IMG/VR virus record: IMGVR_UViG_3300049190_000028
Span: 1 to 54,722 of that record
Source of the DNA: a virus
Taxonomy: Duplodnaviria; Caudoviricetes
Length of the DNA: 54,722 nucleotides
Strand: one strand, 5' to 3'
This document shows, piece by piece, positions 1,940 through 40,358 of the stretch (positions within the stretch are counted from its first letter, which is position 1; the number at the start of each line of letters is the position of its first letter). The notes below the pieces were generated by a model, which searched no databases, was not told the DNA's origin, and saw only the letters and a program-made list of their open reading frames with translations. Position numbers and translations under genes: made by a program.

Positions 1940-3420
1940 CAGGCGGAGACTCCGAGCGCTTGAAGGATGGCGGCGCGGTTCTGGGTGCCGTGCTTGTTGA
2001 GCTGCTGGTTCAGCGCAGTGCGGGCGGCCTGCACGGCCTGGGCGTGGCCCTGCAGCTCCTCCGGCGAGGCTCCCGACTTGATCGCCTGGCGCAAGCCGTT
2101 CTCCAGCGCCCGCAGCGAAGTGCCGAACGAAGCCAGGACCTGCGCCTCAGATTCGTTGCCCGAGCCAAGCACACGACCGACCGCCGCTTCCGGCGTGGCC
2201 GGGGCGGCCGGAGGCGCCTTCTGCGGCGCGGCCGTCGCGCCCGGCGCACGCGGCGCAATGGCTGCGCCGGGCGTAGGCGCCGGCGCGGGACCATCGGTTC
2301 GCAGGCCGAGCGGATCTGCAGGGCCGTCGTCCTTGATGTACTTGCCGGTGATCGCCCGGGCCTGCATGCTCAGCGCAGCCATCTCCGTCTGCAGCGCCTT
2401 GGCGTTCGGGCTTCCCTCCTGCCAATTGCCCTCGGCCCGGGCCTTGGTGATCTGCTGGTTGATGAACTCGGCCTTCTTGTTCAGGTCCGAAAGCGTGAGA
2501 CGGTCTGCCTCGGACATCTTGGCCAGCGGATCCTTCCTGCCGGCCTCGAGCTTGTCGCGCATCAGGCCCAACTGATCGCGGCGGTACTGCTCCTGCGTGT
2601 TGGCGTTCTGCTGAGCAATCTTCAGCATGCCGGCCTGATGCGCGATGGTCGCGTCAAGCTGCTTGGTGCTTTGCTGTTCCGTGAACTGCCGATCCTGGCG
2701 ATCCAACCACAACTTCGGGTCATAGGCCGCTACAGCGTTGCCGAAGAACTCACCGAGACTTGCGAAGCGGCGCTTGCCGACCTCCTTGCCAGCGCCATCG
2801 AGCTGATAGACCGTCGCGCCTCCCTTGCCATCCTCTTCGACGCGAGCGGTATGCCCGTCGTCGTAGTTCTCGTAGATCTTTGGCACCGCGGCCCATCCGC
2901 CCTTCTGCAAAGCGGAGCCTACGGCGCGGAAGGCAGCTGTCCGCTGCTGGTCTTGCAGTAGGTTGGCAAACTGGAGTTCCGCCACTTTCTCCTGTCGCGC
3001 GCCCGCGCGCAGCTGCTGTGCCTCCACTGGCCGGCCGGCTTTCATGAACGCGGACGACATCCGCGCCGAGATGGAGTCCGGCGCGTTGTGGGCGTCGCGG
3101 GCCTTCGTGGCGTCCGCCATGCTGGCGAACTGCTGGCCTTTGACGTTGAAGCCGTTCTGCACTGGTGCCGCCTCGCCGGGCATGCCGACGTCTCGGTTGT
3201 CCTGCGTGTCGGCCTTCTGCATCGTCGGGCGCACATCGGCCGGGTCTGCGGCCATCCGAAGATCGGCCTGCAGCTGATCGGCGTCGTCCCATTGCTTCTT
3301 CGCCCGTGCGCGCTGCATGGACACGAACTGCCGGTCTTCTTCGTCGCGACGAATGTCGCTGACCGTCCGATAGCCCTGATTGAACCCGTTGATCAGCGAG
3401 TTGAGGCTGGAAAGTTTCAT
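1939..3420 (-). CDS. Probable DNA-ejection / internal virion protein (493 aa)
   Basis: Gln/Ala-rich helical ORF coupled to both neighbours; position after tail genes. Confidence 0.65.
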   Translation of the reverse strand: MKLSSLNSLINGFNQGYRTVSDIRRDEEDRQFVSMQRARAKKQWDDADQLQADLRMAADPADVRPTMQKADTQDNRDVGMPGEAAPVQNGFNVKGQQFASMADATKARDAHNAPDSISARMSSAFMKAGRPVEAQQLRAGARQEKVAELQFANLLQDQQRTAAFRAVGSALQKGGWAAVPKIYENYDDGHTARVEEDGKGGATVYQLDGAGKEVGKRRFASLGEFFGNAVAAYDPKLWLDRQDRQFTEQQSTKQLDATIAHQAGMLKIAQQNANTQEQYRRDQLGLMRDKLEAGRKDPLAKMSEADRLTLSDLNKKAEFINQQITKARAEGNWQEGSPNAKALQTEMAALSMQARAITGKYIKDDGPADPLGLRTDGPAPAPTPGAAIAPRAPGATAAPQKAPPAAPATPEAAVGRVLGSGNESEAQVLASFGTSLRALENGLRQAIKSGASPEELQGHAQAVQAARTALNQQLNKHGTQNRAAILQALGVSA

Positions 3421-4190
3421 GCCTTGATTCCTTTGCTCTTGAGCAGCGCGTCCAGCTGCTGCTCGATGGCGTCGAGCTCCAGGCCGGCTTCCTTGATCAG
3501 CCCGACCTTCACGCCCAGTTCGTCGATGACGTTGTCGCCGTGCAGTCCGCGCATGACCAGCTCGCGTGCCGGCGTGCTGGCCGCCGTCTTCTTGGTCCGG
3601 CTGCTGACGATGATGGGCCGGCCCTCGGCGTCGAACTCCACCTCCAGCGGCTTCACGACGTCCCGCTTGCGCTGGTCCTGCTGGGCGCTGTTCATGCTCG
3701 GGAAGTCGAAGTCCGAACCGCCGCCGGCCAGTGCGCTGTCGTAGGCGCTGGTCTCGGCACCCGTCATGCCGCCGCCGTAGCCGGCCTCGCCGAACATCGC
3801 AGCCTTGTCGGCGGAACTCAGCGCGGCATTGCCGCCGGAACTGGTTGCCCCGCCCAGGCCTTCCGTCCCGCCAGCGCCGCCACCGCCCATCGCGTTGTTC
3901 GCCGCGCCTCCGGCGTAGAACGCCGCGATGACACGGGCGATGCGGTGCATGTTGTGCCCGGCCTTGGTATCGATCCCCGCCGCTTCCGCCTTGTCATAGG
4001 TGTCATGCGACGCACCGCCCCACTGGTCGGTGATGGGCTCGTAGTCCTTGCCAAGGACCTTGCCCCACATCTTGGACGACGCCGGGTCGGCCGCGCCCAG
4101 GAAGATCCGCTCTGGGTTCTTCTTGATCTTGCGGGCCATCTCCTTGAGGTTGAACCCCTCGAAGCCCAGGATGTCGGACAGGCTACTCAC
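3417..4190 (-). CDS. Probable virion/ejection protein (257 aa, Gly-rich)
   Basis: Coupled ORF with Gly/Ala-rich centre and C-terminal coiled coil. Confidence 0.55.
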   Translation of the reverse strand: MSSLSDILGFEGFNLKEMARKIKKNPERIFLGAADPASSKMWGKVLGKDYEPITDQWGGASHDTYDKAEAAGIDTKAGHNMHRIARVIAAFYAGGAANNAMGGGGAGGTEGLGGATSSGGNAALSSADKAAMFGEAGYGGGMTGAETSAYDSALAGGGSDFDFPSMNSAQQDQRKRDVVKPLEVEFDAEGRPIIVSSRTKKTAASTPARELVMRGLHGDNVIDELGVKVGLIKEAGLELDAIEQQLDALLKSKGIKA

Positions 4191-11202: not shown

Positions 11203-12287
11203 GCGACCTCGACCGTCTTCCATTCCTTCGCGGACAGGCCCCGGTCGTCGAGATAGACCTCGGTCATCTCTTTGTTCTTGTGGCCGAGCAACGACTGCAC
11301 CGTCTGCGCCGGCATGCCCTCGGCCATGTAGGTCCGAGCGCTGAGGCTGCGCACCTCGTGCAGCGAAGGCCATTCGTACTGCTTGTAGGCTTCTTTGCCG
11401 CACACCGCCACGATCAGCTCGTGGAAGCGGGCCGACAAGCTGGACATCTCGATGGGCTTGCCGTTGGCCTGGCGCAGCAGTGTGTCGCCCGGCGCACCGA
11501 TGTCGCGGCAGAGCTCGATGACTTCGCCAAGCGTCATCCCGGTCGCCTCCAGGCGCAGGCTGAGCGGGATGGCCACGCGCGCGCCGATCTTCTTGCGGGC
11601 CTTCTTTTGCTGCTCGATGCGCAGATGCCCATCGACCACGTCGCTGAACCGCATCTTGGCAAGGTCCGCGCGACGCTGGCCGGTGTGCAGCGCGAGCAGC
11701 AGCATCGCCGGCACCCACGGGACGGTGCCAGCGCTGGCCAGCAGCAGCATGTCGTTCCACGTCTCCAGAGTCAGCCGTTTGCGCAGCCCTGGCGCCCTGG
11801 GCGGCTTGACGTGGGCGGCCGGGCTTGTTTCGGCCTCCCCGTTGGCGATGGCCTCGACGTAGACGTCTCGCAGTTCGCCGAGCACCCTCACCGCCTTGTG
11901 CGGGCTGCAGGTCTTCAGCAGCGACGCGATCTCGTGCGGCTTGACGGCACGCAGCGGCCGCGCGCCCAAGCTGGACTCGATGAACTTCACCGATGCGGAG
12001 CGGTTGCGGATCGTCTGCGGGTCATAGCCGCGGTCGCCGAGGATGGTCCGGTAGGTCGCGAGCCATGCGGCCATCGACATGCCGTCCGCCGGCGGCTCCT
12101 GGGGCGCCAGGGCGGCGGCAGGTACCTCGATGGGGACTGCGGCAACGGGCGGCGTTGGCGGCGGCGGAGGCGGCGCGGGCGCCGGCTGCATGGATGGGAA
12201 GACCTGCGCCACTTGGCCGCCTGCCGGCAGCGCTCGAATTGCGTTGGCGATGGACTCGAGAACGTCCGCGAGGTGTCCGCCTGTCAT
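11190..12287 (-). CDS. Second tyrosine recombinase (lambda Int-like catalytic domain)
   Basis: TGQRRADL, HEVRSL and LLGHK...TEVY catalytic motifs. Confidence 0.92.
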   Translation of the reverse strand: MTGGHLADVLESIANAIRALPAGGQVAQVFPSMQPAPAPPPPPPTPPVAAVPIEVPAAALAPQEPPADGMSMAAWLATYRTILGDRGYDPQTIRNRSASVKFIESSLGARPLRAVKPHEIASLLKTCSPHKAVRVLGELRDVYVEAIANGEAETSPAAHVKPPRAPGLRKRLTLETWNDMLLLASAGTVPWVPAMLLLALHTGQRRADLAKMRFSDVVDGHLRIEQQKKARKKIGARVAIPLSLRLEATGMTLGEVIELCRDIGAPGDTLLRQANGKPIEMSSLSARFHELIVAVCGKEAYKQYEWPSLHEVRSLSARTYMAEGMPAQTVQSLLGHKNKEMTEVYLDDRGLSAKEWKTVEVACTG

Positions 12288-34777: not shown

Positions 34778-35023
34778 ATGACGGAAGTCGAGACGCTCCG
34801 CGCCGAGATCGAAGCGATCAAGCTCATTTGCATGTGCCTGCTGCAGAACATGCCAGCGCACGAGCGATCCAGCGCCATGCACGACATAGCAAAGACGGCG
34901 TCGCTCTACTCCGATCGGCTGCTGTTTCAGCCGATGCCGGATGCGCAGCGCGAACACATGAACACGGTGATTCGGGCGCTTTCCGAGCCTCCGCGTGCGC
35001 CCGGATCGCCACAAGGCGCCTGA
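34778..35023 (+). CDS. Small counter-oriented hypothetical protein (81 aa)
   Basis: GGAGGG RBS; helical protein. Confidence 0.55.
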   Translation: MTEVETLRAEIEAIKLICMCLLQNMPAHERSSAMHDIAKTASLYSDRLLFQPMPDAQREHMNTVIRALSEPPRAPGSPQGA

Positions 35024-35235
35024 CGTTCTCGGCAGCGCGTTCGCCAGGACGCGATGCTTCAGCGGTTGGTCGAGGATGCAGCCCGCTCGACCTGAGCAGC
35101 TGGTCCGCGAGGTCGTCCGGCTCCTTCCCGACCGCTGCCGCCGCGAGCCGCGCACGAACATCCGCCAGAGCGGACCGCATGTGCCACGGCAGCGGAGGGA
35201 CCGGCGCAACGCGGCGTCGTTTGCAGCGCCTCATG

Positions 35236-35547
35236 TCAGGCCTCCTGTGCAGCAGGAGCTGTGACGTCGACCGCCGGCGGAACGGGAGCGCCCTTGGCGC
35301 CGACCAGATCGGGCCACTCGCGCCACCAGTCATCGGGTCGCAGATCCCACCGCATCACCGGACGCTCCGAAGCGCGGTTCAGTGGATGAATCTCGATGGC
35401 GATGCAGAGTCGGGGCGGGACAGGCCGCCAGGCCGGGTCAGATTGCTCTCTCGCCCAGCCGCTGACGGTGGGCTGCGAGATGCGGAGCGCGTCGGCCATT
35501 GCGACCTGGTTGCCGAAGTTTTTGATTGCCCGTTGAACACCGTTCAT
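35236..35547 (-). CDS. cro: Cro / YdaS-like HTH regulator
   Basis: GNQVAMADALRISQPTVSGW HTH; RWDLRPDDW..WPDL; divergent from cI. Confidence 0.85.
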   Translation of the reverse strand: MNGVQRAIKNFGNQVAMADALRISQPTVSGWAREQSDPAWRPVPPRLCIAIEIHPLNRASERPVMRWDLRPDDWWREWPDLVGAKGAPVPPAVDVTAPAAQEA

Positions 35548-35553
35548 GGGCTG

Positions 35554-35618
35554 AAATATAGGCAATGCGCTTACTTCGGTCAAGCGCATTGCACGTTATA
35601 GGCAATGCCTGTTGGAAT
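35554..35618. promoter_or_regulatory. oR: pR, putative pRM and repressor operators
   Basis: Minus strand TTGACC-N17-TATATT-N7-ATG(cro); three GCAATGC-core sites; 23 bp shared with pL. Confidence 0.85.
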
Positions 35619-35624
35619 GCGCGA

Positions 35625-36095
35625 ATGCTGACGGGGAAGGAACTAGGAGCCGCGATCAAAGCGGCAATGAAGCTGAAGGGCGTGACCCAGCAGGACGTCG
35701 CGACCGAATTCGGCGTCATGCAGCCATCGGTGTCGGCCTGGACCCGAACCGGCCGCATCGACAAAGAGCACCTAGACCATCTGATGGCCTACTTCGCTGA
35801 CGTCGTCGGCCCGGATCATTGGGGCTTCAAGGCCTTTACCGTCAACTATGACGAGGCCCTGGGGCAGGCGATCAAGCGTGTCAACGAGGAGTTGTCGCCA
35901 AACGGTGTTCCGCCCGGCATGTCGCTCCGTGCAATCAGTTTGGCACGGCGGTTTGACTCGCTGAAGGACGAAGAAGCCCAGCGGATCGTGTACGCGTTGA
36001 TGGACAACGCGCTTCAGCAGTTCGAGGGGACGCCACCGCAAGCCTCGCCGCGCGCACCGCGTAAGCCAAAGCGTCCACCAGGTTCCGATCGCTAA
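35625..36095 (+). CDS. cI: CI-like repressor: XRE HTH without S24 autoprotease domain
   Basis: TQQDVATEFGVMQPSVSAW HTH; 156 aa; no Ser/Lys peptidase motif. Confidence 0.85.
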   Translation: MLTGKELGAAIKAAMKLKGVTQQDVATEFGVMQPSVSAWTRTGRIDKEHLDHLMAYFADVVGPDHWGFKAFTVNYDEALGQAIKRVNEELSPNGVPPGMSLRAISLARRFDSLKDEEAQRIVYALMDNALQQFEGTPPQASPRAPRKPKRPPGSDR

Positions 36096-36528
36096 AGACG
36101 CCCACCGGAATGCCCTTCCTAGCGAGGTCGGCAGCGATGCCGCGAAACGCCTGGACTGTGCAGTCGTTCCCGACCATCGCCAAGCCGCTCGAGCTTGATG
36201 TGCCGCAAGCCCAGTTCAGAAGGGCAGAATGCATTCGCAGCACATCGACGTGCTGACCAAGCATGTGGATCACGATGCCGCAGCTTGGCTCAATGGGGCA
36301 CCCAAGCGCTTCTCGGACGGCTTCTGCCGCGGCGGCGGCATGTAGGTTGTTGATGACGATGACGCGCAGCGCCTGCTGCTCGATGACCTGGAACGCGGCT
36401 GACAAGTTTCTTCCTCCCGTCGCTGCAGCCCCAATGCTGAGGATGTTGCCAACCCCCGATGTGGTGCCCGGTATACCTTCCAGGGTCCCGTTCTCGTAGG
36501 GGTTGCGCCTCGTACCATCAAGTGGCAT
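35935..36528 (-). CDS. Hypothetical alpha/beta protein, weakly STAS/SpoIIAA-like; overlaps the cI 3' end
   Basis: Open 197 codons; ...RKGIPVGVFSDRNLVDALAYA; has its own promoter. Confidence 0.5.
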   Translation of the reverse strand: MPLDGTRRNPYENGTLEGIPGTTSGVGNILSIGAAATGGRNLSAAFQVIEQQALRVIVINNLHAAAAAEAVREALGCPIEPSCGIVIHMLGQHVDVLRMHSALLNWACGTSSSSGLAMVGNDCTVQAFRGIAADLARKGIPVGVFSDRNLVDALAYAVRAARLAVASPRTAEARCPSTRTRSAGLLRPSASQTAVPN

Positions 36529-36542
36529 GCGCGACAGATGTC

Positions 36543-36591
36543 AGTGTGACGACGGCGCCCTGCAATGGCAACTACCAGGAATACGTAAGTA
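36543..36591 (-). promoter_or_regulatory. Leftward promoter with abutting 20-bp box (candidate LuxR site A)
   Basis: TTGCCA-N17-CACACT; CTACCAGGAATACGTAAGTA (36572-36591) immediately upstream of the -35. Confidence 0.6.
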
Positions 36592-36604
36592 GCAGGCAGC
36601 GTTG

Positions 36605-37297
36605 ATGTTTTCGAACCACTACCAAGAACTAGAGAAGCCCAGTTCCGTTGAAAAGTTCACGGAGGCCATGCAGGCCCTGTGCCTCGCCGCTGGCGCCGAG
36701 CGGTTCATCGTCTTCGGCCTTGGTGGCGCAGAAGACGGCGAAGTGCAGCATCTGCTGCACAGCGGCAGCGATGCGGCTGGCGTTGTGCTGCTCGGCTCTC
36801 GGCATTGGACGGTGGACCGGCTGCTGACAACGCTGCGCGTGACGGGCATGCCAGTCGAGCTCGGCGCTGGTGGCCTGGAGGTGAGCGTCGAGGGGTTCGA
36901 GTTCGGGGCCGCCGCGATCTCGCGCGATGCGCATTCGGCGTGTGCCGTGGTATTCGGAACCGACCAACCCCACGCGACGCGCGAGGCGTTGTACGAACTG
37001 CACGCAGGCGCTCAGATGGCGGCGATCTATGCCAGCTGTGGCCTGAAGGTCCTCATGCCACCGAAGACGTGCATGCTGCGGCCACGCGAGTTGGAGTGCC
37101 TGGCCTACTACATGGCCGGCAAATCGACGAAGGAAACGGCCGAGGCCATGGGAATTGGGCCTCGGACCGTAGAAGTGCACTTGGACCGCGCTCGCGCGCG
37201 GTACGGCGTCAAGGCCACGATGGTGGCGGGCATGCGCGCCGTGCGAGAGGGCTGGATCACAACGGCCCAGATTGGGGCCATTCGCGACGCTGCCTGA
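36605..37297 (+). CDS. LuxR-family regulator A (intact HTH, degenerate ligand domain)
   Basis: LRPRELECL...GKSTKETA..MGIGPRTVEVHL. Confidence 0.9.
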   Translation: MFSNHYQELEKPSSVEKFTEAMQALCLAAGAERFIVFGLGGAEDGEVQHLLHSGSDAAGVVLLGSRHWTVDRLLTTLRVTGMPVELGAGGLEVSVEGFEFGAAAISRDAHSACAVVFGTDQPHATREALYELHAGAQMAAIYASCGLKVLMPPKTCMLRPRELECLAYYMAGKSTKETAEAMGIGPRTVEVHLDRARARYGVKATMVAGMRAVREGWITTAQIGAIRDAA

Positions 37298-37357
37298 TCA
37301 GCCGCCACCGTAGGGGATGCCGAGGAGTTCAAGGAAGGCGTCGAAAAAGCTATGCAT
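37298..37357 (-). CDS. 19-aa peptide MHSFFDAFLELLGIPYGGG
   Basis: GGAG 7 nt before ATG; stop abuts the luxR-A stop (TGATCA); lux-box-like site upstream. Confidence 0.6.
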   Translation of the reverse strand: MHSFFDAFLELLGIPYGGG

Positions 37358-37403
37358 GTAGATGCTCCAGTGGGTTGCGTTCGAACCGAATCGGCTCGAA
37401 GCC

Positions 37404-37450
37404 ACTGTGGCATACGTACGTATTTCTGGTAGCTACCAACCCTTGTAGGG
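37404..37450 (-). promoter_or_regulatory. Peptide-gene promoter: lux-box-like site, box copy B and extended -10
   Basis: AG-CTACCAACCCTTGTAG-GG (CT-N12-AG, 37431-37450); CTACCAGAAATACGTACGTA (37413-37432, 18/20 to site A); TGc-CACAGT. Confidence 0.55.
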
Positions 37451-37462
37451 CGGGTGCAATCC

Positions 37463-38185
37463 CTAGGCTGGCTTGATCAGGCCGCCTTCGATGGCGCGCA
37501 GGATCGCCATTGGGCCCGTGGTGGCGGCGAGCTTCTGGGCAGCCGTTCGCTGGGCCCGGGCCCTAGTTGGGTTCGTGATGACGACCTTGTCGCCGCGCAG
37601 GTGCACGACCTGAGCGTCAGCGGCCCATTTCAAGGCTTCTACCTCTTCCTTGCCGACGGCGTTCAGATCAATAGCCGGCGCGGCCGTGTGGATCCGCTTC
37701 GCCGCTGATTGCGCATGCAGCACGATCAGCCGGAGATCGCCCTCGAGCTTGAACCGTGCCGCGCCAGTCGGAACCGGATCAGCGCTGTCCACGCCGAAGC
37801 AGAAGGTCTCAGCGTGCGAGAACTCGTGCAGCGAGATCGCCATGCCGTTGCGGTATCCGAACGGCGCCTGCAGCTCCCACAACTCGCCAGCCCCTGCGGC
37901 GACGTAGAAGGCTTGGTCGTAGACGTGGCACCCCTGCTTGGCCTGCATCGCAGTCAGCAGCGGATCACGTACTCCAACGTCCTGCGACTTAAAGACCTCG
38001 TAGAACCCATCTGGCGGGTTCCCGAAGCTGTGCACCATCGCCTTACGCGACGCCAGCCGGCCGCGGATCAACGTCCCGCCGGCCAGGCCGAACCCGAGCT
38101 TGCCTGCGGCCGCCACGAGCCGCGCCTGCAGCGTCTCCGCGTCAGGCGACAGGCCGATGTCGAGCAGGTCCTGGTAAGCGAGCAT
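37463..38185 (-). CDS. LuxR-family protein B (autoinducer-binding domain, degenerate HTH)
   Basis: GNPP..F...F......RDP...YDQ...LWE..APFGY..G; C-terminus EEVEALKW...AQKL...AILRAIEGGLI lacks the GK and TVxxH motifs. Confidence 0.85.
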   Translation of the reverse strand: MLAYQDLLDIGLSPDAETLQARLVAAAGKLGFGLAGGTLIRGRLASRKAMVHSFGNPPDGFYEVFKSQDVGVRDPLLTAMQAKQGCHVYDQAFYVAAGAGELWELQAPFGYRNGMAISLHEFSHAETFCFGVDSADPVPTGAARFKLEGDLRLIVLHAQSAAKRIHTAAPAIDLNAVGKEEVEALKWAADAQVVHLRGDKVVITNPTRARAQRTAAQKLAATTGPMAILRAIEGGLIKPA

Positions 38186-38209
38186 GGCTTGATGCGGTCA
38201 GAGGGCCGG

Positions 38210-38551
38210 CTACTTTGTTTCCACCTGCACTGCTGAAGGCTTAGGCGCACGCTTCCGCTTTGTGCGGCCCTGCTTGGCCAGCTCGGCAGCATCAAAAACC
38301 AGCGGCCCTGGCTCATTAACCGGCGCCAGTCCGACACCCGCTATGCCAACCAGCGCGGTCGGCAGGTACGCGGGAGGACCGTCTCCGGCCTGTGTCCAGC
38401 CGTGGACTCCACCGCCGAGGGTCAGATGCACACCCAGCCTCCAAAGTCCGGAAGTAATGCCTTTGGCCGCAAGCAGCGTGGTTGCGATTTCCTCGACGGT
38501 GAAGTTCACAGCCCCAGGGGGGCCGGACTGCGATGGAACGGACGTGCTCAT
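38210..38551 (-). CDS. Hypothetical third gene of TA operon (113 aa)
   Basis: ATG at 38551 overlaps the 3' end of the antitoxin ORF as given in the track. Confidence 0.7.
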   Translation of the reverse strand: MSTSVPSQSGPPGAVNFTVEEIATTLLAAKGITSGLWRLGVHLTLGGGVHGWTQAGDGPPAYLPTALVGIAGVGLAPVNEPGPLVFDAAELAKQGRTKRKRAPKPSAVQVETK

Positions 38552-39123
38552 GTAATCGCTGCTGGGCCGAAAGTGGTTTTGGTCTCTTCAGGGCGGAGCC
38601 GTTGATCAGAGTTGGACGTCATGAAGCTCTGAATGACCGTCCACGTCGCCTCCGCCGCCTGCGCCTTGATGGGCTCGAGTGCGTTAGCGCTGCTCACATC
38701 GCGCCACTCGCCATTGACGTACTCAAAGACGTAGCCGTGGGAAACGAAGTCGCGGTCGCAGAGCATCTTCTCGACGGCCTTGTTCAGGTCGCGTCTCGAA
38801 TGCTTGTTCAGCCACGCGAGCCGCAGTAATCGCGCTGCCGCAACTGGCACGGGAGTTGTCCCCTTCTCCCACTTGGCGACAGCCTGGTCCGTGGCGCCGA
38901 CGTACCGGCCGACCTCGGATTGGCTCATGGACAAGCGCTTGCGAAGGAAGCGGAACTCCGGAGCCGTCAGGTTTGCACCGCGGCAAGCGACAGTCCTCGC
39001 AAGCACTTTGAAGAGCCCTTGCAGATCCTCGTAGGCGACGGACTGGTCGTCTCCTTCGCCCTGAATGTCGAAGCCGTTGACCAACCGGACATCCGGCAGG
39101 CCGGTGCCTCTCATGCGATGCAT
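38548..39123 (-). CDS. XRE-HTH antitoxin (MqsA/HigA-like) with C-terminal extension
   Basis: GLPDVRLVNGF...LTAPEFRFLRKRLSMSQ...AVAKWEKG; start overlaps the toxin stop. Confidence 0.8.
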   Translation of the reverse strand: MHRMRGTGLPDVRLVNGFDIQGEGDDQSVAYEDLQGLFKVLARTVACRGANLTAPEFRFLRKRLSMSQSEVGRYVGATDQAVAKWEKGTTPVPVAAARLLRLAWLNKHSRRDLNKAVEKMLCDRDFVSHGYVFEYVNGEWRDVSSANALEPIKAQAAEATWTVIQSFMTSNSDQRLRPEETKTTFGPAAIT

Positions 39124-39443
39124 CACTTTGCCTCGATCACTGTGACAACCAGGCACCCCGTTAGGGCTGCCCAATCTTCTGATGCGTGCTCAATGCCCGC
39201 AATGACAACGCGAACTGAACACCCGCGGTGAACCACTTCTGCCCGCAACTCGCCGTTGGTGTAAACCGGCTCGTAAGCCTTCCCCTTCGACAGGCAGGTC
39301 ATAACGTCCTCGTGGTCAATGTCCCGTTCCTCCATACGTTCCAACGCGTGAGTGCGGAAGCGAACGTTTCGGGAGCTCGCTTTCGCCAAGGCGTTAACGG
39401 CCTTGGTTAAGCGGGAATTGATGCTACCAGACTTGTCTCGCAT
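39123..39443 (-). CDS. DUF4258-like (RelE/BrnT-fold) putative toxin
   Basis: FRTHALERMEERDI...V..CL..G...LVVTVI. Confidence 0.75.
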   Translation of the reverse strand: MRDKSGSINSRLTKAVNALAKASSRNVRFRTHALERMEERDIDHEDVMTCLSKGKAYEPVYTNGELRAEVVHRGCSVRVVIAGIEHASEDWAALTGCLVVTVIEAK

Positions 39444-39453
39444 CCTATACTTT

Positions 39454-39771
39454 TTATAGGTTTGCTTGATGCGATACGTGAGATTCGACCGTCTTTGAGG
39501 GGCGACACAGCCGCGCCTCGCGCTTGGTCTTCAGCGCATGGTCATGCACCGTCAACCACTGCATGTTCGCCGGCGCATCCGCTCCCCCGCACTTCAGGGG
39601 AACGACGTGATCGATCTGCCAGCCTGGGCATGCGGCGCTGGCGCTGGTCTTGCCGGTGGCGGGGCAGGAGTGGGTGCGCTTGAAGTCCCGCATTGCAGCC
39701 TGTGACCGCCCTGGCCATCCGAAAGCTGCGCAGCTGACGGCAAATGCGCAGAAACACAGCAACCACCTCAT
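39454..39771 (-). CDS. HNH nuclease-like protein with N-terminal signal peptide
   Basis: MRWLLCFCAFAVSCAAFG; IDHVVPLKCGGAD...NMQWL...H..KT. Confidence 0.8.
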   Translation of the reverse strand: MRWLLCFCAFAVSCAAFGWPGRSQAAMRDFKRTHSCPATGKTSASAACPGWQIDHVVPLKCGGADAPANMQWLTVHDHALKTKREARLCRPSKTVESHVSHQANL

Positions 39772-40358
39772 GTGCCGACTGTAAAAGCGGCCGGTGGTAT
39801 GCCTTTGACCACCCGATACAGATCAATGTTCACGAACAGTTGGTCATCCGTCAGCCCGCCATCCGCCCACAAAACGACCTTCTCGGCGAGGTCTTCGGCC
39901 GCAGTCGATGACGCTGGAGCATCCCGTCGATAACCCATGCCCAGCCGTGGGTTGTGGTGCAGGTAGAGGCTGCGACTGAGCTCACGATCCGCTTCATGCT
40001 GTGCAAGGAGTCGCCAATAGGCGGACCGCTCGCCCGCGATGTACGGATCGCTCCCGCCGATGCCAGGGTGTTCTTGCATGAAGAAATAGAAGCCAAGCGC
40101 GCGGGCGGAGTCCGGCCATCCGATGGTCGAGATGATGCGCGTCGCATCGATCGCCATCGCTCGAAGCATGTTGGTCGGTAGCAGTGACTCAACTGTGTTC
40201 ATCCGAGTCATGAACGCCAGCTGAAGCCACTCGTGAGGCTCCCCGTCTGGAAACACCGCCTGAGCAGCCTCGCAGTCGCGCGCCACTTCTGCGGTGATCC
40301 GTTCGCATAGCGCGCGCGGGCTTATCAACCCTGCAACCTTGTTGCGAAGCGTTTTCAT
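39768..40358 (-). CDS. Hypothetical protein (196 aa)
   Basis: GGAGGA RBS; ATGA coupling to the HNH gene. Confidence 0.65.
   Translation of the reverse strand: MKTLRNKVAGLISPRALCERITAEVARDCEAAQAVFPDGEPHEWLQLAFMTRMNTVESLLPTNMLRAMAIDATRIISTIGWPDSARALGFYFFMQEHPGIGGSDPYIAGERSAYWRLLAQHEADRELSRSLYLHHNPRLGMGYRRDAPASSTAAEDLAEKVVLWADGGLTDDQLFVNIDLYRVVKGIPPAAFTVGT

Follow-up and report, generated by a model that had tools for sequence, protein, structure and literature searches.

A micropeptide gene conserved behind LuxR-type receptor genes in a phage and in a bacterial genus

Two genes for LuxR-type receptors converge in the virus record IMGVR_UViG_3300049190_000028 of IMG/VR (Duplodnaviria; Caudoviricetes), and the locus raises the question whether a further gene is hidden in the short interval between them and, if so, what its product could do there. 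The window, by which we mean the whole stretch of 54.7 kb (54,722 nucleotides, nt) that was analysed, has a completeness estimate of 90% and carries a tyrosine integrase at 11244-11708. A sequence-only reading of the window had proposed an unannotated open reading frame (ORF) of 19 codons in this interval behind a lux-box-like promoter, and had suggested that its product is an antirepressor, a LuxR-binding modulator or the precursor of an arbitrium-like peptide signal. Direct reading of the letters confirmed the ORF: the minus strand encodes the quoted peptide from 37357 to 37298, GGAG (37368-37365) stands 7 nt before the ATG, and the stop adjoins that of the second receptor gene, luxR-A, with a gap of 0 (37298 versus 37297). 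Comparison with other loci identifies the ORF as a real, conserved gene. It lies among the following features (lengths of proteins in amino acids, aa).

37298..37357, minus strand: micropeptide gene, 19 codons and a stop; ATG at 37357, stop at 37300-37298
37365..37368, minus strand: Shine-Dalgarno (SD) sequence GGAG, 7 nt upstream of the micropeptide ATG
37463..38185, minus strand: luxR-B, gene of a LuxR-type receptor of 240 aa, directly upstream of the micropeptide gene on the same strand
36602..37297, plus strand: luxR-A, gene of a second LuxR-type receptor of 231 aa, convergent; its stop (37295-37297) abuts the stop of the peptide gene

The micropeptide gene and its linkage to LuxR-type genes

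Relatives of the locus were retrieved through LuxR-B, for which 74 homologues of 42-100% identity were found, some of them named Roseateles, Pelomonas or Rubrivivax by their sources. An alignment of 28 of the 74 led to 12 loci, located in two genomes, four viral contigs and six metagenome contigs. A check of synteny for short ORFs next to LuxR-B homologues, suggested together with the original claim, gave a positive result: in 11 of the 12 loci a similar ORF of 17-27 aa occupies the equivalent place, and an SD-like run precedes its ATG by 4-7 nt. The ORF is complete (17-27 codons) and lies just downstream of luxR-B in ten loci. In L009 its start is present and the contig end then cuts it, and in L006 it is found ~1 kb further on past an insertion, still adjoining luxR-A and with a control region of its own. 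No peptide ORF was detected in L008, a 1.2-Mb metagenome contig where two tandem luxR-B-like genes (2259-3708) are accompanied by neither a peptide gene nor luxR-A. A second alignment-based scan returned only the same four viral contigs and generic helix-turn-helix (HTH) matches (L018-L021). Single-protein scans of IMG/VR with LuxR-B and LuxR-A yielded zero relatives, whereas the alignment-based scans did find them. Among deposited phages there was no DNA match for the region and no protein match for LuxR-B at E<=1e-8.

Several observations indicate that the similarity resides in the encoded peptide. A profile made from the five loci that stand nearest to the window placed the ORFs of L013 (E 1.7e-9) and L011 (E 3.8e-3) on top of 854 six-frame segments from six distant loci, and with the reverse profile L003 (E 3.6e-5), L004 (1.3e-3), L007 (1.4e-3) and L002 (0.47) took ranks 1-4 among 606 segments. 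A block of four codons specifies constant amino acids in six loci, and every third position of the block is occupied by three different bases; the mean pairwise difference at the three codon positions is 0.52, 0.33 and 0.61, respectively. Similarity at the peptide level persists across loci whose receptors are only 40-47% identical.

The distribution of the gene was determined by a blind search, in which a 19-position profile derived from 16 aligned peptides (alignment A5) was run in six frames against whole genomes. The first set consisted of the 47 genomes of the GTDB genus that contains two metagenome-assembled genomes (MAGs) titled Roseateles sp., called the genus below. Matches were obtained in 45/47 genomes at E<=0.05 and in 40/47 at E<=0.001, altogether 72 matches with 1-3 per genome. 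Loci were inspected for the best 30 of the 72 matches (42 weaker ones were left out, and three of the 30 are contigs already known), and in all 30 the same strand has an open frame resembling LuxR-B whose end lies 91-133 nt upstream. Of 401 genomes sampled evenly across the family 8 matched, four of them members of the genus, and the receptor gene was 97-139 nt upstream in 6/6 inspected loci. In a sample of the order 2/401 genomes matched and both were genus members, which leaves 0/399 as the false-positive control. Overall, a LuxR-type gene is located 91-139 nt upstream on the same strand in 36/36 inspected matches. Weaker LuxR matches in the two MAGs and in a third genome likewise have a peptide gene behind them. 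The comparison thus describes a peptide gene that is conserved and strictly linked to a LuxR-type gene, and taking into account the matches in 45/47 genus genomes and the 36/36 receptor adjacency, the phage carries a genus-wide, unannotated cassette. Its order is LuxR-type receptor, lux-box-like palindrome, -10-like hexamer, SD-masking leader and micropeptide.

The 50 loci encode 47 distinct peptides of 16-27 residues (median 18), which have a net charge of mostly -1, a glycine-rich tail and an invariant proline. An acidic residue precedes this proline by four to six places in 42/47 peptides, variation is concentrated in the two residues that follow it, and beyond the glycines the C-terminus varies in length. 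By sequence the peptide is an amphipathic helix with a helical moment of 1.54, the longest uncharged stretch being 5-12 residues. Neither a basic N-terminus nor a hydrophobic core of signal-peptide length was recognised in the peptides, and there are acidic residues within the helix. Pfam and NCBIfam contained no model for six members of 20-27 residues.

Some candidate identities of the peptide were considered and rejected. Resemblance to the N-terminus of LuxR-B or to the helix-turn part of LuxR-A was below 1 bit in all cases. For a double-glycine leader the spacing of the conserved residues does not suit the consensus, for a sortase motif there is neither a signal peptide nor a membrane anchor, and for a PqqA-like precursor the tyrosine is not conserved. 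Co-folding of LuxR-A (A3) and LuxR-B (A1) with a 35-codon ORF containing the peptide scored 0.00, a value that had no controls and weighs neither way.

The control region

The region between luxR-B and the micropeptide gene contains the elements listed below.

37433..37448, no strand: lux-box-like palindrome 4+8+4, centre at 37440.5, 43.5 nt from the predicted start of transcription
37427..37438, no strand: second, perfect palindrome of 12 base pairs (bp), overlapping the first; window only
37404..37412, minus strand: -10-like hexamer (37409-37404) with TG two bases upstream; a conserved pattern in the aligned leaders
37368..37407, minus strand: structured leader; outer helix of 37407-37402 with 37373-37368 touching the SD, inner hairpin at 37400-37380

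A lux box is an inverted repeat of 18-20 bp with CTG and CAG arms ten bases apart, which is centred near -42.5 of promoters that have no good -35 element. The positions given earlier for a TG-n-hexamer and a 4+8+4 palindrome proved correct (37412-37404 and 37433-37448), and 37397, 7 nt past the hexamer, was taken as the predicted start. Positions 2, 4 and 6 of the hexamer and the G next to it are invariant in the 12 phage-type leaders that were aligned. A hexamer of this pattern is present 33-54 nt before the ATG in 45/50 loci, and in three of the five that miss it there is one at 29 nt. A palindrome precedes the hexamer in every group: the lux-box core is found in the palindromes of L002, L003 and L007, and canonical six-base lux-box arms occur in L029 (6+8+6) and L039. 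The palindrome of the window is a symmetrical variant of CTG/CAG arms ten bases apart, in which A and T replace G and C; read by eye, the window box is identical at 17/20 positions to the box of host cassette types 2 and 4. Distances between box and hexamer fall into two classes, 23-24 nt and 34 nt, which are ~10 nt (about one helical turn) apart. The consensus scan detected no promoter of the sigma-70 type in 36400-38400, which is what a promoter dependent on an activator would show, nor did it detect a terminator in the intergenic stretch.

These comparisons support the view that the upstream palindrome is of the lux-box type and that its distance from the -10-like hexamer, itself a conserved element, is maintained; LuxR control of the peptide promoter is supported with it. 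The earlier claim of a lux-box-like promoter is accordingly supported for the palindrome, which has a canonical counterpart in L029, and for the hexamer, with the reservation that the window arms are a variant and that the start is predicted. Two further observations concern the same segment. In the window only, the 12-bp palindrome shares bases with the right arm of the lux-box-like site, so that three half-sites follow one another, and a sigma-54 promoter within the palindrome was rejected for its wrong spacing.

The leader that follows the hexamer is predicted to be strongly structured. In the window its minimum free energy is -22.3 kcal/mol (z -4.0), with 0/200 shuffles equally stable; folded from the predicted start, it has z -0.9 and the SD is free. 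All 12 leaders of the phage-type loci share an architecture with an outer helix that leads from inside or just after the hexamer to the SD region and encloses a hairpin. Covariation was assessed by an alignment-free test comparing duplexes of cognate and non-cognate arms, since MAFFT had put the hairpins in shifted columns of alignment A4. Cognate arms pair with -10.9 kcal/mol and non-cognate arms with -6.9 kcal/mol (permutation p 2e-5), the cognate arm being the best partner in 9/12. Accessibility of the SD was compared between the short and the long transcript of 45 distinct leaders, and is higher in the short one in 28 (medians 0.42 versus 0.30, p 0.0015); the values for the window are 0.58 and 0.37, respectively.

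Receptors, RNA and neighbouring genes

Both receptors were examined by profile comparison. LuxR-B matches Autoind_bind of Pfam (PF03472) with E 1.8e-6 and 27.9 bits against a cut-off of 23, and its profile aligns over the full length to RhlR (positions 24-241), SdiA and LasR, also to QscR. GerE (PF00196) was not matched by the window copy of LuxR-B, and is matched by 2/74 LuxR-B homologues and, with E 3.7e-15, by one receptor of a host cassette; the family profile nevertheless reaches the last residue of RhlR, SdiA and LasR. LuxR-A has a GerE match (1.5e-10) and an N-terminal half without a Pfam match, and its profile (A2) aligns to TraR of NGR234 at positions 9-213 (E 3e-14), the best solved relative being the TraR chain of the TraR-TraM complex 2q0o. 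By these alignments both families are full-length LuxR-type receptors.

The residues that we take to be the hallmark contacts of acyl-homoserine lactone (AHL), namely two Trp, Tyr, Asp-Pro and Gly, were mapped from the RhlR alignment. At the first Trp site 57/57 receptors have Phe, Tyr, His or Leu, at the later Trp site 56/57 have Tyr, and Asp-Pro is kept in 57/57; the Tyr site is Ser, Ala, Phe or another residue in the receptors examined. LuxI was absent from the window, and a clear LuxI was found in 1/47 genus genomes. Short, weak LuxI-family matches (24-35 bits, covering the first third to half of the model) were seen in 14 other genus genomes, e.g. L063-L065, in frames of 185-341 residues, and are probably related acyltransferases rather than LuxI. 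LuxR solos that do not respond to AHL, such as PluR, PauR and the plant-associated solos next to pip, have substituted AHL-contact residues and no cognate LuxI. The receptors described here are like them in these two properties and in standing beside a gene that they may control or that may make their ligand; they differ in that the neighbours of the solos are enzymes (pyrone or dialkylresorcinol synthases, proline iminopeptidase) and the neighbour here is a ribosomal micropeptide.

One correlation between peptides and receptors was recorded. Arg after the invariant proline goes with Asp or Asn at receptor position 124 (LuxR-B numbering) in 14/15 host cassettes, and an aromatic or aliphatic residue after the proline goes with Tyr, Lys or Gly at this position in 14/14. 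The split at position 124 follows clades, and phage-type receptors do not show it.

LuxR-A is rare, with matches in 2/401 family genomes and in 3/47 genus genomes (one of the three weak), the seven best candidates per genome being scored in the large samples. A LuxR-A homologue is convergent to the peptide ORF in 9/9 loci with contigs long enough, and in these nine the stops of the peptide gene and of luxR-A are separated by -44 to +3 nt. RNA made from the ORF is consequently bound to reach into luxR-A and to end there, antisense to it. In L005, L006, L011, L012 and L013 the luxR-A frame extends 26-44 nt past the homologous end and into the peptide ORF of the other strand; since these extensions are not conserved, it is the peptide that is under constraint.

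RNA from three metatranscriptome runs matches this part of the window exactly.

37125..37380, contigs without strand: stretch covered by exact RNA contigs of three metatranscriptome runs
37130..37165, minus strand: terminator-like hairpin with an 8-bp stem, a 10-nt loop and a T-rich tail, inside luxR-A

The contigs cover 37126-37368 (X18), 37125-37286 (X19) and 37225-37380 (X20), each with 0 other letters, and span 173 nt of luxR-A next to the ORF. The upper ends of X20 and X18 stand 17 and 29 nt short of the predicted start. At the other side, two of them end (37125, 37126) where the GC-rich hairpin (37165-37140) and its T-rich tail end. The cI-like gene is matched by one more exact contig (35655-35815), and there was none elsewhere in 35000-39500; the three runs, maybe of one campaign, contain small shares of the words of the region, and neither small shares nor uncovered stretches count as evidence. 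RNA over the peptide gene exists in nature, its strand not being assigned. The strandless contigs fit a transcript of ~270 nt from the peptide promoter. Under looser rules terminators were found in 13/47 loci (3.6 expected), nine of which represent one conserved hairpin of host types 2 and 4. Rfam at E<=1 had nothing in 35000-40000.

In the genus the cassette is a chromosomal feature (45/47 genomes) with housekeeping neighbours, and genomes hold 1-3 cassettes with distinct boxes and peptide tails. Gene calls in the flanking DNA were crude ORF picks. In host types 2 and 4 the peptide gene is followed, on its own strand, by a gene for an Orn/Lys/Arg decarboxylase of ~800 residues (8 loci: L071-L075, L078-L080); it is directly next in type 4, and in type 2 an opposite-strand SPFH gene stands between. 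A convergent gene for enoyl-ACP (acyl carrier protein) reductase lies beyond the decarboxylase. Nine loci of these two types, including L026, L045, L047, L051, L052, L056, L058 and L059, have a nearly invariant GC-rich hairpin of 7 bp with a 6-nt loop 42-49 nt after the peptide stop, which may terminate or attenuate transcription before the decarboxylase gene. In types 1 and 3 the same strand carries no gene nearby. The conserved neighbours of the cassette in 15 loci of 12 kb did not include an exporter, a protease or an importer.

The surroundings are different in the phage, where the module is ~1.2 kb from a divergent cI/Cro-like pair, the cI-like repressor gene being located at 35565-36095. 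Between cI and luxR-A, and overlapping the cI-like gene at its 3' end, is an ORF of 197 aa without any family (35935-36528, minus strand), for which L002 has a homologue of 47% identity in the equivalent position, so that a real gene is probable. An XRE-type gene lies two genes upstream of luxR-B: on the same strand, at 38548-39443, a gene for an XRE/MqsA-like HTH protein (208 aa) overlaps a gene of 106 aa. The two may form a pair of the toxin-antitoxin kind, and they are reminiscent of the XRE-LuxR operon in Aeromonas phages. Run X3 contains a 30-kb DNA contig that equals the window at 35000-38186 and diverges from it exactly at the start codon of luxR-B; the immunity genes therefore travel together with the two-receptor module, as one block, between phages whose flanking genes differ.

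Roles considered for the peptide

The reading that we tentatively prefer, and hold to be a good possibility slightly short of probable, is that the peptide is a dedicated intracellular partner of a LuxR protein and closes a feedback loop in the place of luxI. A LuxR-type receptor of the cassette would bind the palindrome and fire the peptide promoter. Transcripts from this promoter would be without the 5' arm of the leader and hence translatable, whereas read-through from luxR-B would carry the 5' arm and have a masked SD, much like in fold-back inhibition. The peptide would act inside the cell on its receptor, as a co-factor or an anti-activator, and the transcript, running antisense into luxR-A, would oppose LuxR-A at the RNA level and perhaps at the protein level. 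The result would be a toggle between LuxR-B and LuxR-A beside the immunity genes. Intracellular action is favoured because neither an export signal nor an exporter was found and because known luxR loci include small adjoining genes that LuxR activates and that feed back on it. Relative to the sequence-only reading, what this adds is that the cassette extends far beyond the phage, that the leader can mask the SD and that the transcript would be antisense to luxR-A.

Parts of the proposed mechanism have precedents. TraM (~100 residues), RsaL (~80) and RsaM (~150) are folded proteins; traR and traM are convergent, and RsaL and RsaM are intergenic regulators of LuxI/LuxR loci. The cassette resembles TraR-TraM in having a small gene that adjoins luxR, is presumably activated by that LuxR and would feed back on it, and is unlike TraM, RsaL and RsaM in that the window contains no LuxI and the product has only 16-27 residues. 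In IS10 and IS50, fold-back inhibition consists in the pairing of upstream sequence with the ribosome-binding site, so that only transcripts from the proper promoter are translated; compared with these, the start is predicted here and masking is clear in only part of the family. A short convergent transcript overlapping the 3' end of a regulator gene is known from lambda, where OOP antisense RNA acts against cII. Partner proteins of LuxR are the subject of a 2026 review (PMC13043044), which names TraM, QslA, QteE, Aqs1 and others and does not contain the word 'peptide'.

A number of observations weigh against the intracellular partner. Such a role leaves the signal that is sensed by the conserved ligand-binding domains unaccounted for. 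The window's own ORF had a non-significant E of 3.3 with the profile of the distant group, at rank 2/1391 segments, and pN/pS (the ratio of non-synonymous to synonymous variation) was 0.66 in frame and 0.74-1.52 in the other five frames, so that the frames are not separated. Most type-1 host leaders and some of the phage type show little or no SD masking, and a terminator hairpin like that of the window was present in only 2/10 phage-type loci. The RNA contigs could be a stable 3' piece of luxR-A mRNA. Finally, the same-strand decarboxylase gene of types 2 and 4 fits the role of a leader peptide in those loci.

Alternatively, the peptide, or a processed C-terminal fragment of it, could be exported and serve as the ligand of these non-AHL LuxR-type receptors, which would make the cassette a ribosomal autoinducer circuit and would explain the missing LuxI, the altered AHL pockets and the several types of cassette. 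We consider such a circuit unlikely, yet deserving of real weight. It would consist of a private receptor-peptide pair and, together with LuxR-A, give the phage a logic like that of arbitrium or of short hydrophobic peptides (SHP). The peptide gene occupies the place of luxI behind a lux-type box, clear LuxI is restricted to 1/47 genomes, and the AHL-contact tryptophans are replaced in 57/57 receptors while the domain is conserved. The 1-3 cassettes per genome, with their distinct boxes and tails, are reminiscent of pherotype families, variation is focused on the two residues past the invariant proline, and Arg pairs with Asp or Asn at receptor position 124 in 14/15 loci, a correlation confounded by clade. 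On the other hand, the peptides lack a basic N-terminus and a hydrophobic core of signal length and have acidic residues in the helix, no conserved exporter, protease or importer is nearby, all 16-18 residues are constrained and not just a short mature part, and phage-type receptors keep residues 124 and 126 regardless of the peptide tail. The general proposition that LuxR-type receptors use an adjacent ribosomal micropeptide or a fragment of it as a ligand is doubtful to the same degree.

Among known systems the comparison here is with Rgg/SHP, ComR/ComS, PrgX/PrgQ and AimR/AimP, which are Gram-positive and have receptors of the RRNPP type with tetratricopeptide-repeat (TPR) folds and precursors with export-competent N-termini. 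As in RRNPP systems and arbitrium, a tiny peptide gene adjoins the receptor gene (36/36), there are paralogous cassettes with diversified peptides, and the phage copy is near the lysis-lysogeny genes. Unlike them, the receptor is of the LuxR type, the host is Gram-negative and the peptide is without a secretion signal. The earlier suggestion of an arbitrium-like signal thus gains from the general lack of LuxI and from the non-AHL receptors, and is weakened by the missing secretion signal.

It is distinctly less likely that the RNA itself acts in cis, opposing luxR-A as antisense RNA in the phage and, in the hosts, serving as a leader of the genes downstream, with the ORF as a leader peptide that tunes the RNA. 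The transcript necessarily overlaps the 3' end of luxR-A, the RNA contigs cover 173 nt of this gene and the leader is structured; in types 2 and 4 the decarboxylase gene is on the same strand and the nearly invariant hairpin follows the peptide stop by 42-49 nt (9 loci). However, the amino-acid pattern is kept in spite of unrelated downstream contexts (convergent luxR-A, an opposite-strand gene, decarboxylase), and the variable length of the C-terminus past the glycines speaks against a fixed arrest site at the stop. Moreover, types 1 and 3 have no close same-strand gene. In the window and the other phage-type loci the gene next to the peptide gene is convergent.

An effector aimed outside the cassette, for example an antirepressor of the phage cI-like protein, is improbable. 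The idea is based on the modules of a transcription factor and a small ORF (TF-smORF) known from linear plasmid-like phages, which include the XRE-LuxR-smORF modules of Aeromonas phages Apop and ARM81ld (Silpe et al. 2023, PMC10432266). The module of the window is like them in having a phage LuxR-type receptor, thought to drive the promoter of an unannotated small ORF beside it, near the immunity genes, and LuxR-smORF modules that inactivate cI are known in phages (PMC10432266). The TF-smORFs encode ~50 residues (156 nt in Apop), are counter-oriented to the TF operon, are phage-specific and inactivate their own cI (PMC10432266). The peptide gene described here, in contrast, has 19 codons, lies downstream on the same strand, belongs to a host-chromosomal family and keeps its sequence beside unrelated repressors. 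Among systems reported in the portion of the literature covered, the phage XRE-LuxR-smORF module is nonetheless the nearest, from which the cassette differs in size, orientation, specificity and target. The literature search found no paper on a LuxR-adjacent micropeptide cassette, the phage lists in the supplements of PMC10432266 being outside its scope.

The position of the module, ~1.2 kb from the cI/Cro-like pair and with an XRE-type gene two genes upstream of luxR-B, would suit an antirepressor. Against it, the receptor-peptide cassette recurs beside unrelated immunity genes, and the peptides are alike where the repressor is unrelated or absent; L002 is the only locus that shares the cI of the window (81% identity), yet its peptide is just 50% identical. 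The cassette is chromosomal in 45/47 host genomes, and in a natural sample RNA over the cassette occurred together with cI RNA, unlike what would be expected of a silent induction switch. The antirepressor, the first option of the sequence-only reading, is accordingly disfavoured by a cassette that is chromosomal in nearly every genome of the genus.

A small membrane-active or toxic peptide under LuxR control, resembling type I toxins or phenol-soluble modulins (PSM), is very improbable. Its tiny size, the amphipathic helix (moment 1.54), the SD-masking fold and the overlapping antisense transcription in the phage recall such peptides, but an uncharged stretch of 5-12 residues and a net charge of mostly -1 provide neither the length nor the charge for spanning or attacking a membrane, and the linkage to LuxR is strict. 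That the ORF is a chance frame in GC-rich intergenic DNA, with only the promoter or a flanking terminator conserved, is scarcely credible, for although DNA of such GC content often has open frames this long and pN/pS is indecisive, the peptides are similar despite 40-47% receptor identity, changes confined to third positions were seen, ATG and SD (a run 4-7 nt before the ATG) are kept in 12/12 loci, and the blind search was LuxR-adjacent in 36/36 cases with 0/399 control genomes matching.

LuxR solos are very common, and their ligands and logic are mostly unresolved; here a genus and its phages pair such solos with a conserved micropeptide gene. Whatever its function, the micropeptide belongs to a LuxR circuit as a dedicated component overlooked by gene callers, and its gene stands behind a lux-type box in the slot of the signal synthase. 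If, as in the reading preferred above, it binds the receptor, it would represent a new class of LuxR partners, far smaller than TraM, RsaL, QslA and Aqs1. If it is a ligand, it would break the rule that LuxR receptors sense small metabolites, and would be the first peptide autoinducer for a receptor of the LuxR family and a Gram-negative counterpart of Rgg/SHP and arbitrium. Since the phage box is nearly identical to that of one type of host cassette, the phage could in that case signal to its kin and overhear or interfere with the host circuit, and such signalling would bear on its decision between lysogeny and lysis. Roseateles-type bacteria are cultivable and have cassettes in 40-45 of 47 genomes, which makes the question testable without the uncultured phage. 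For phage biology, the locus would be a second, independent design of a LuxR-based decision module, with two convergent receptors, a peptide gene between them, an RNA overlap and a safeguard against read-through.

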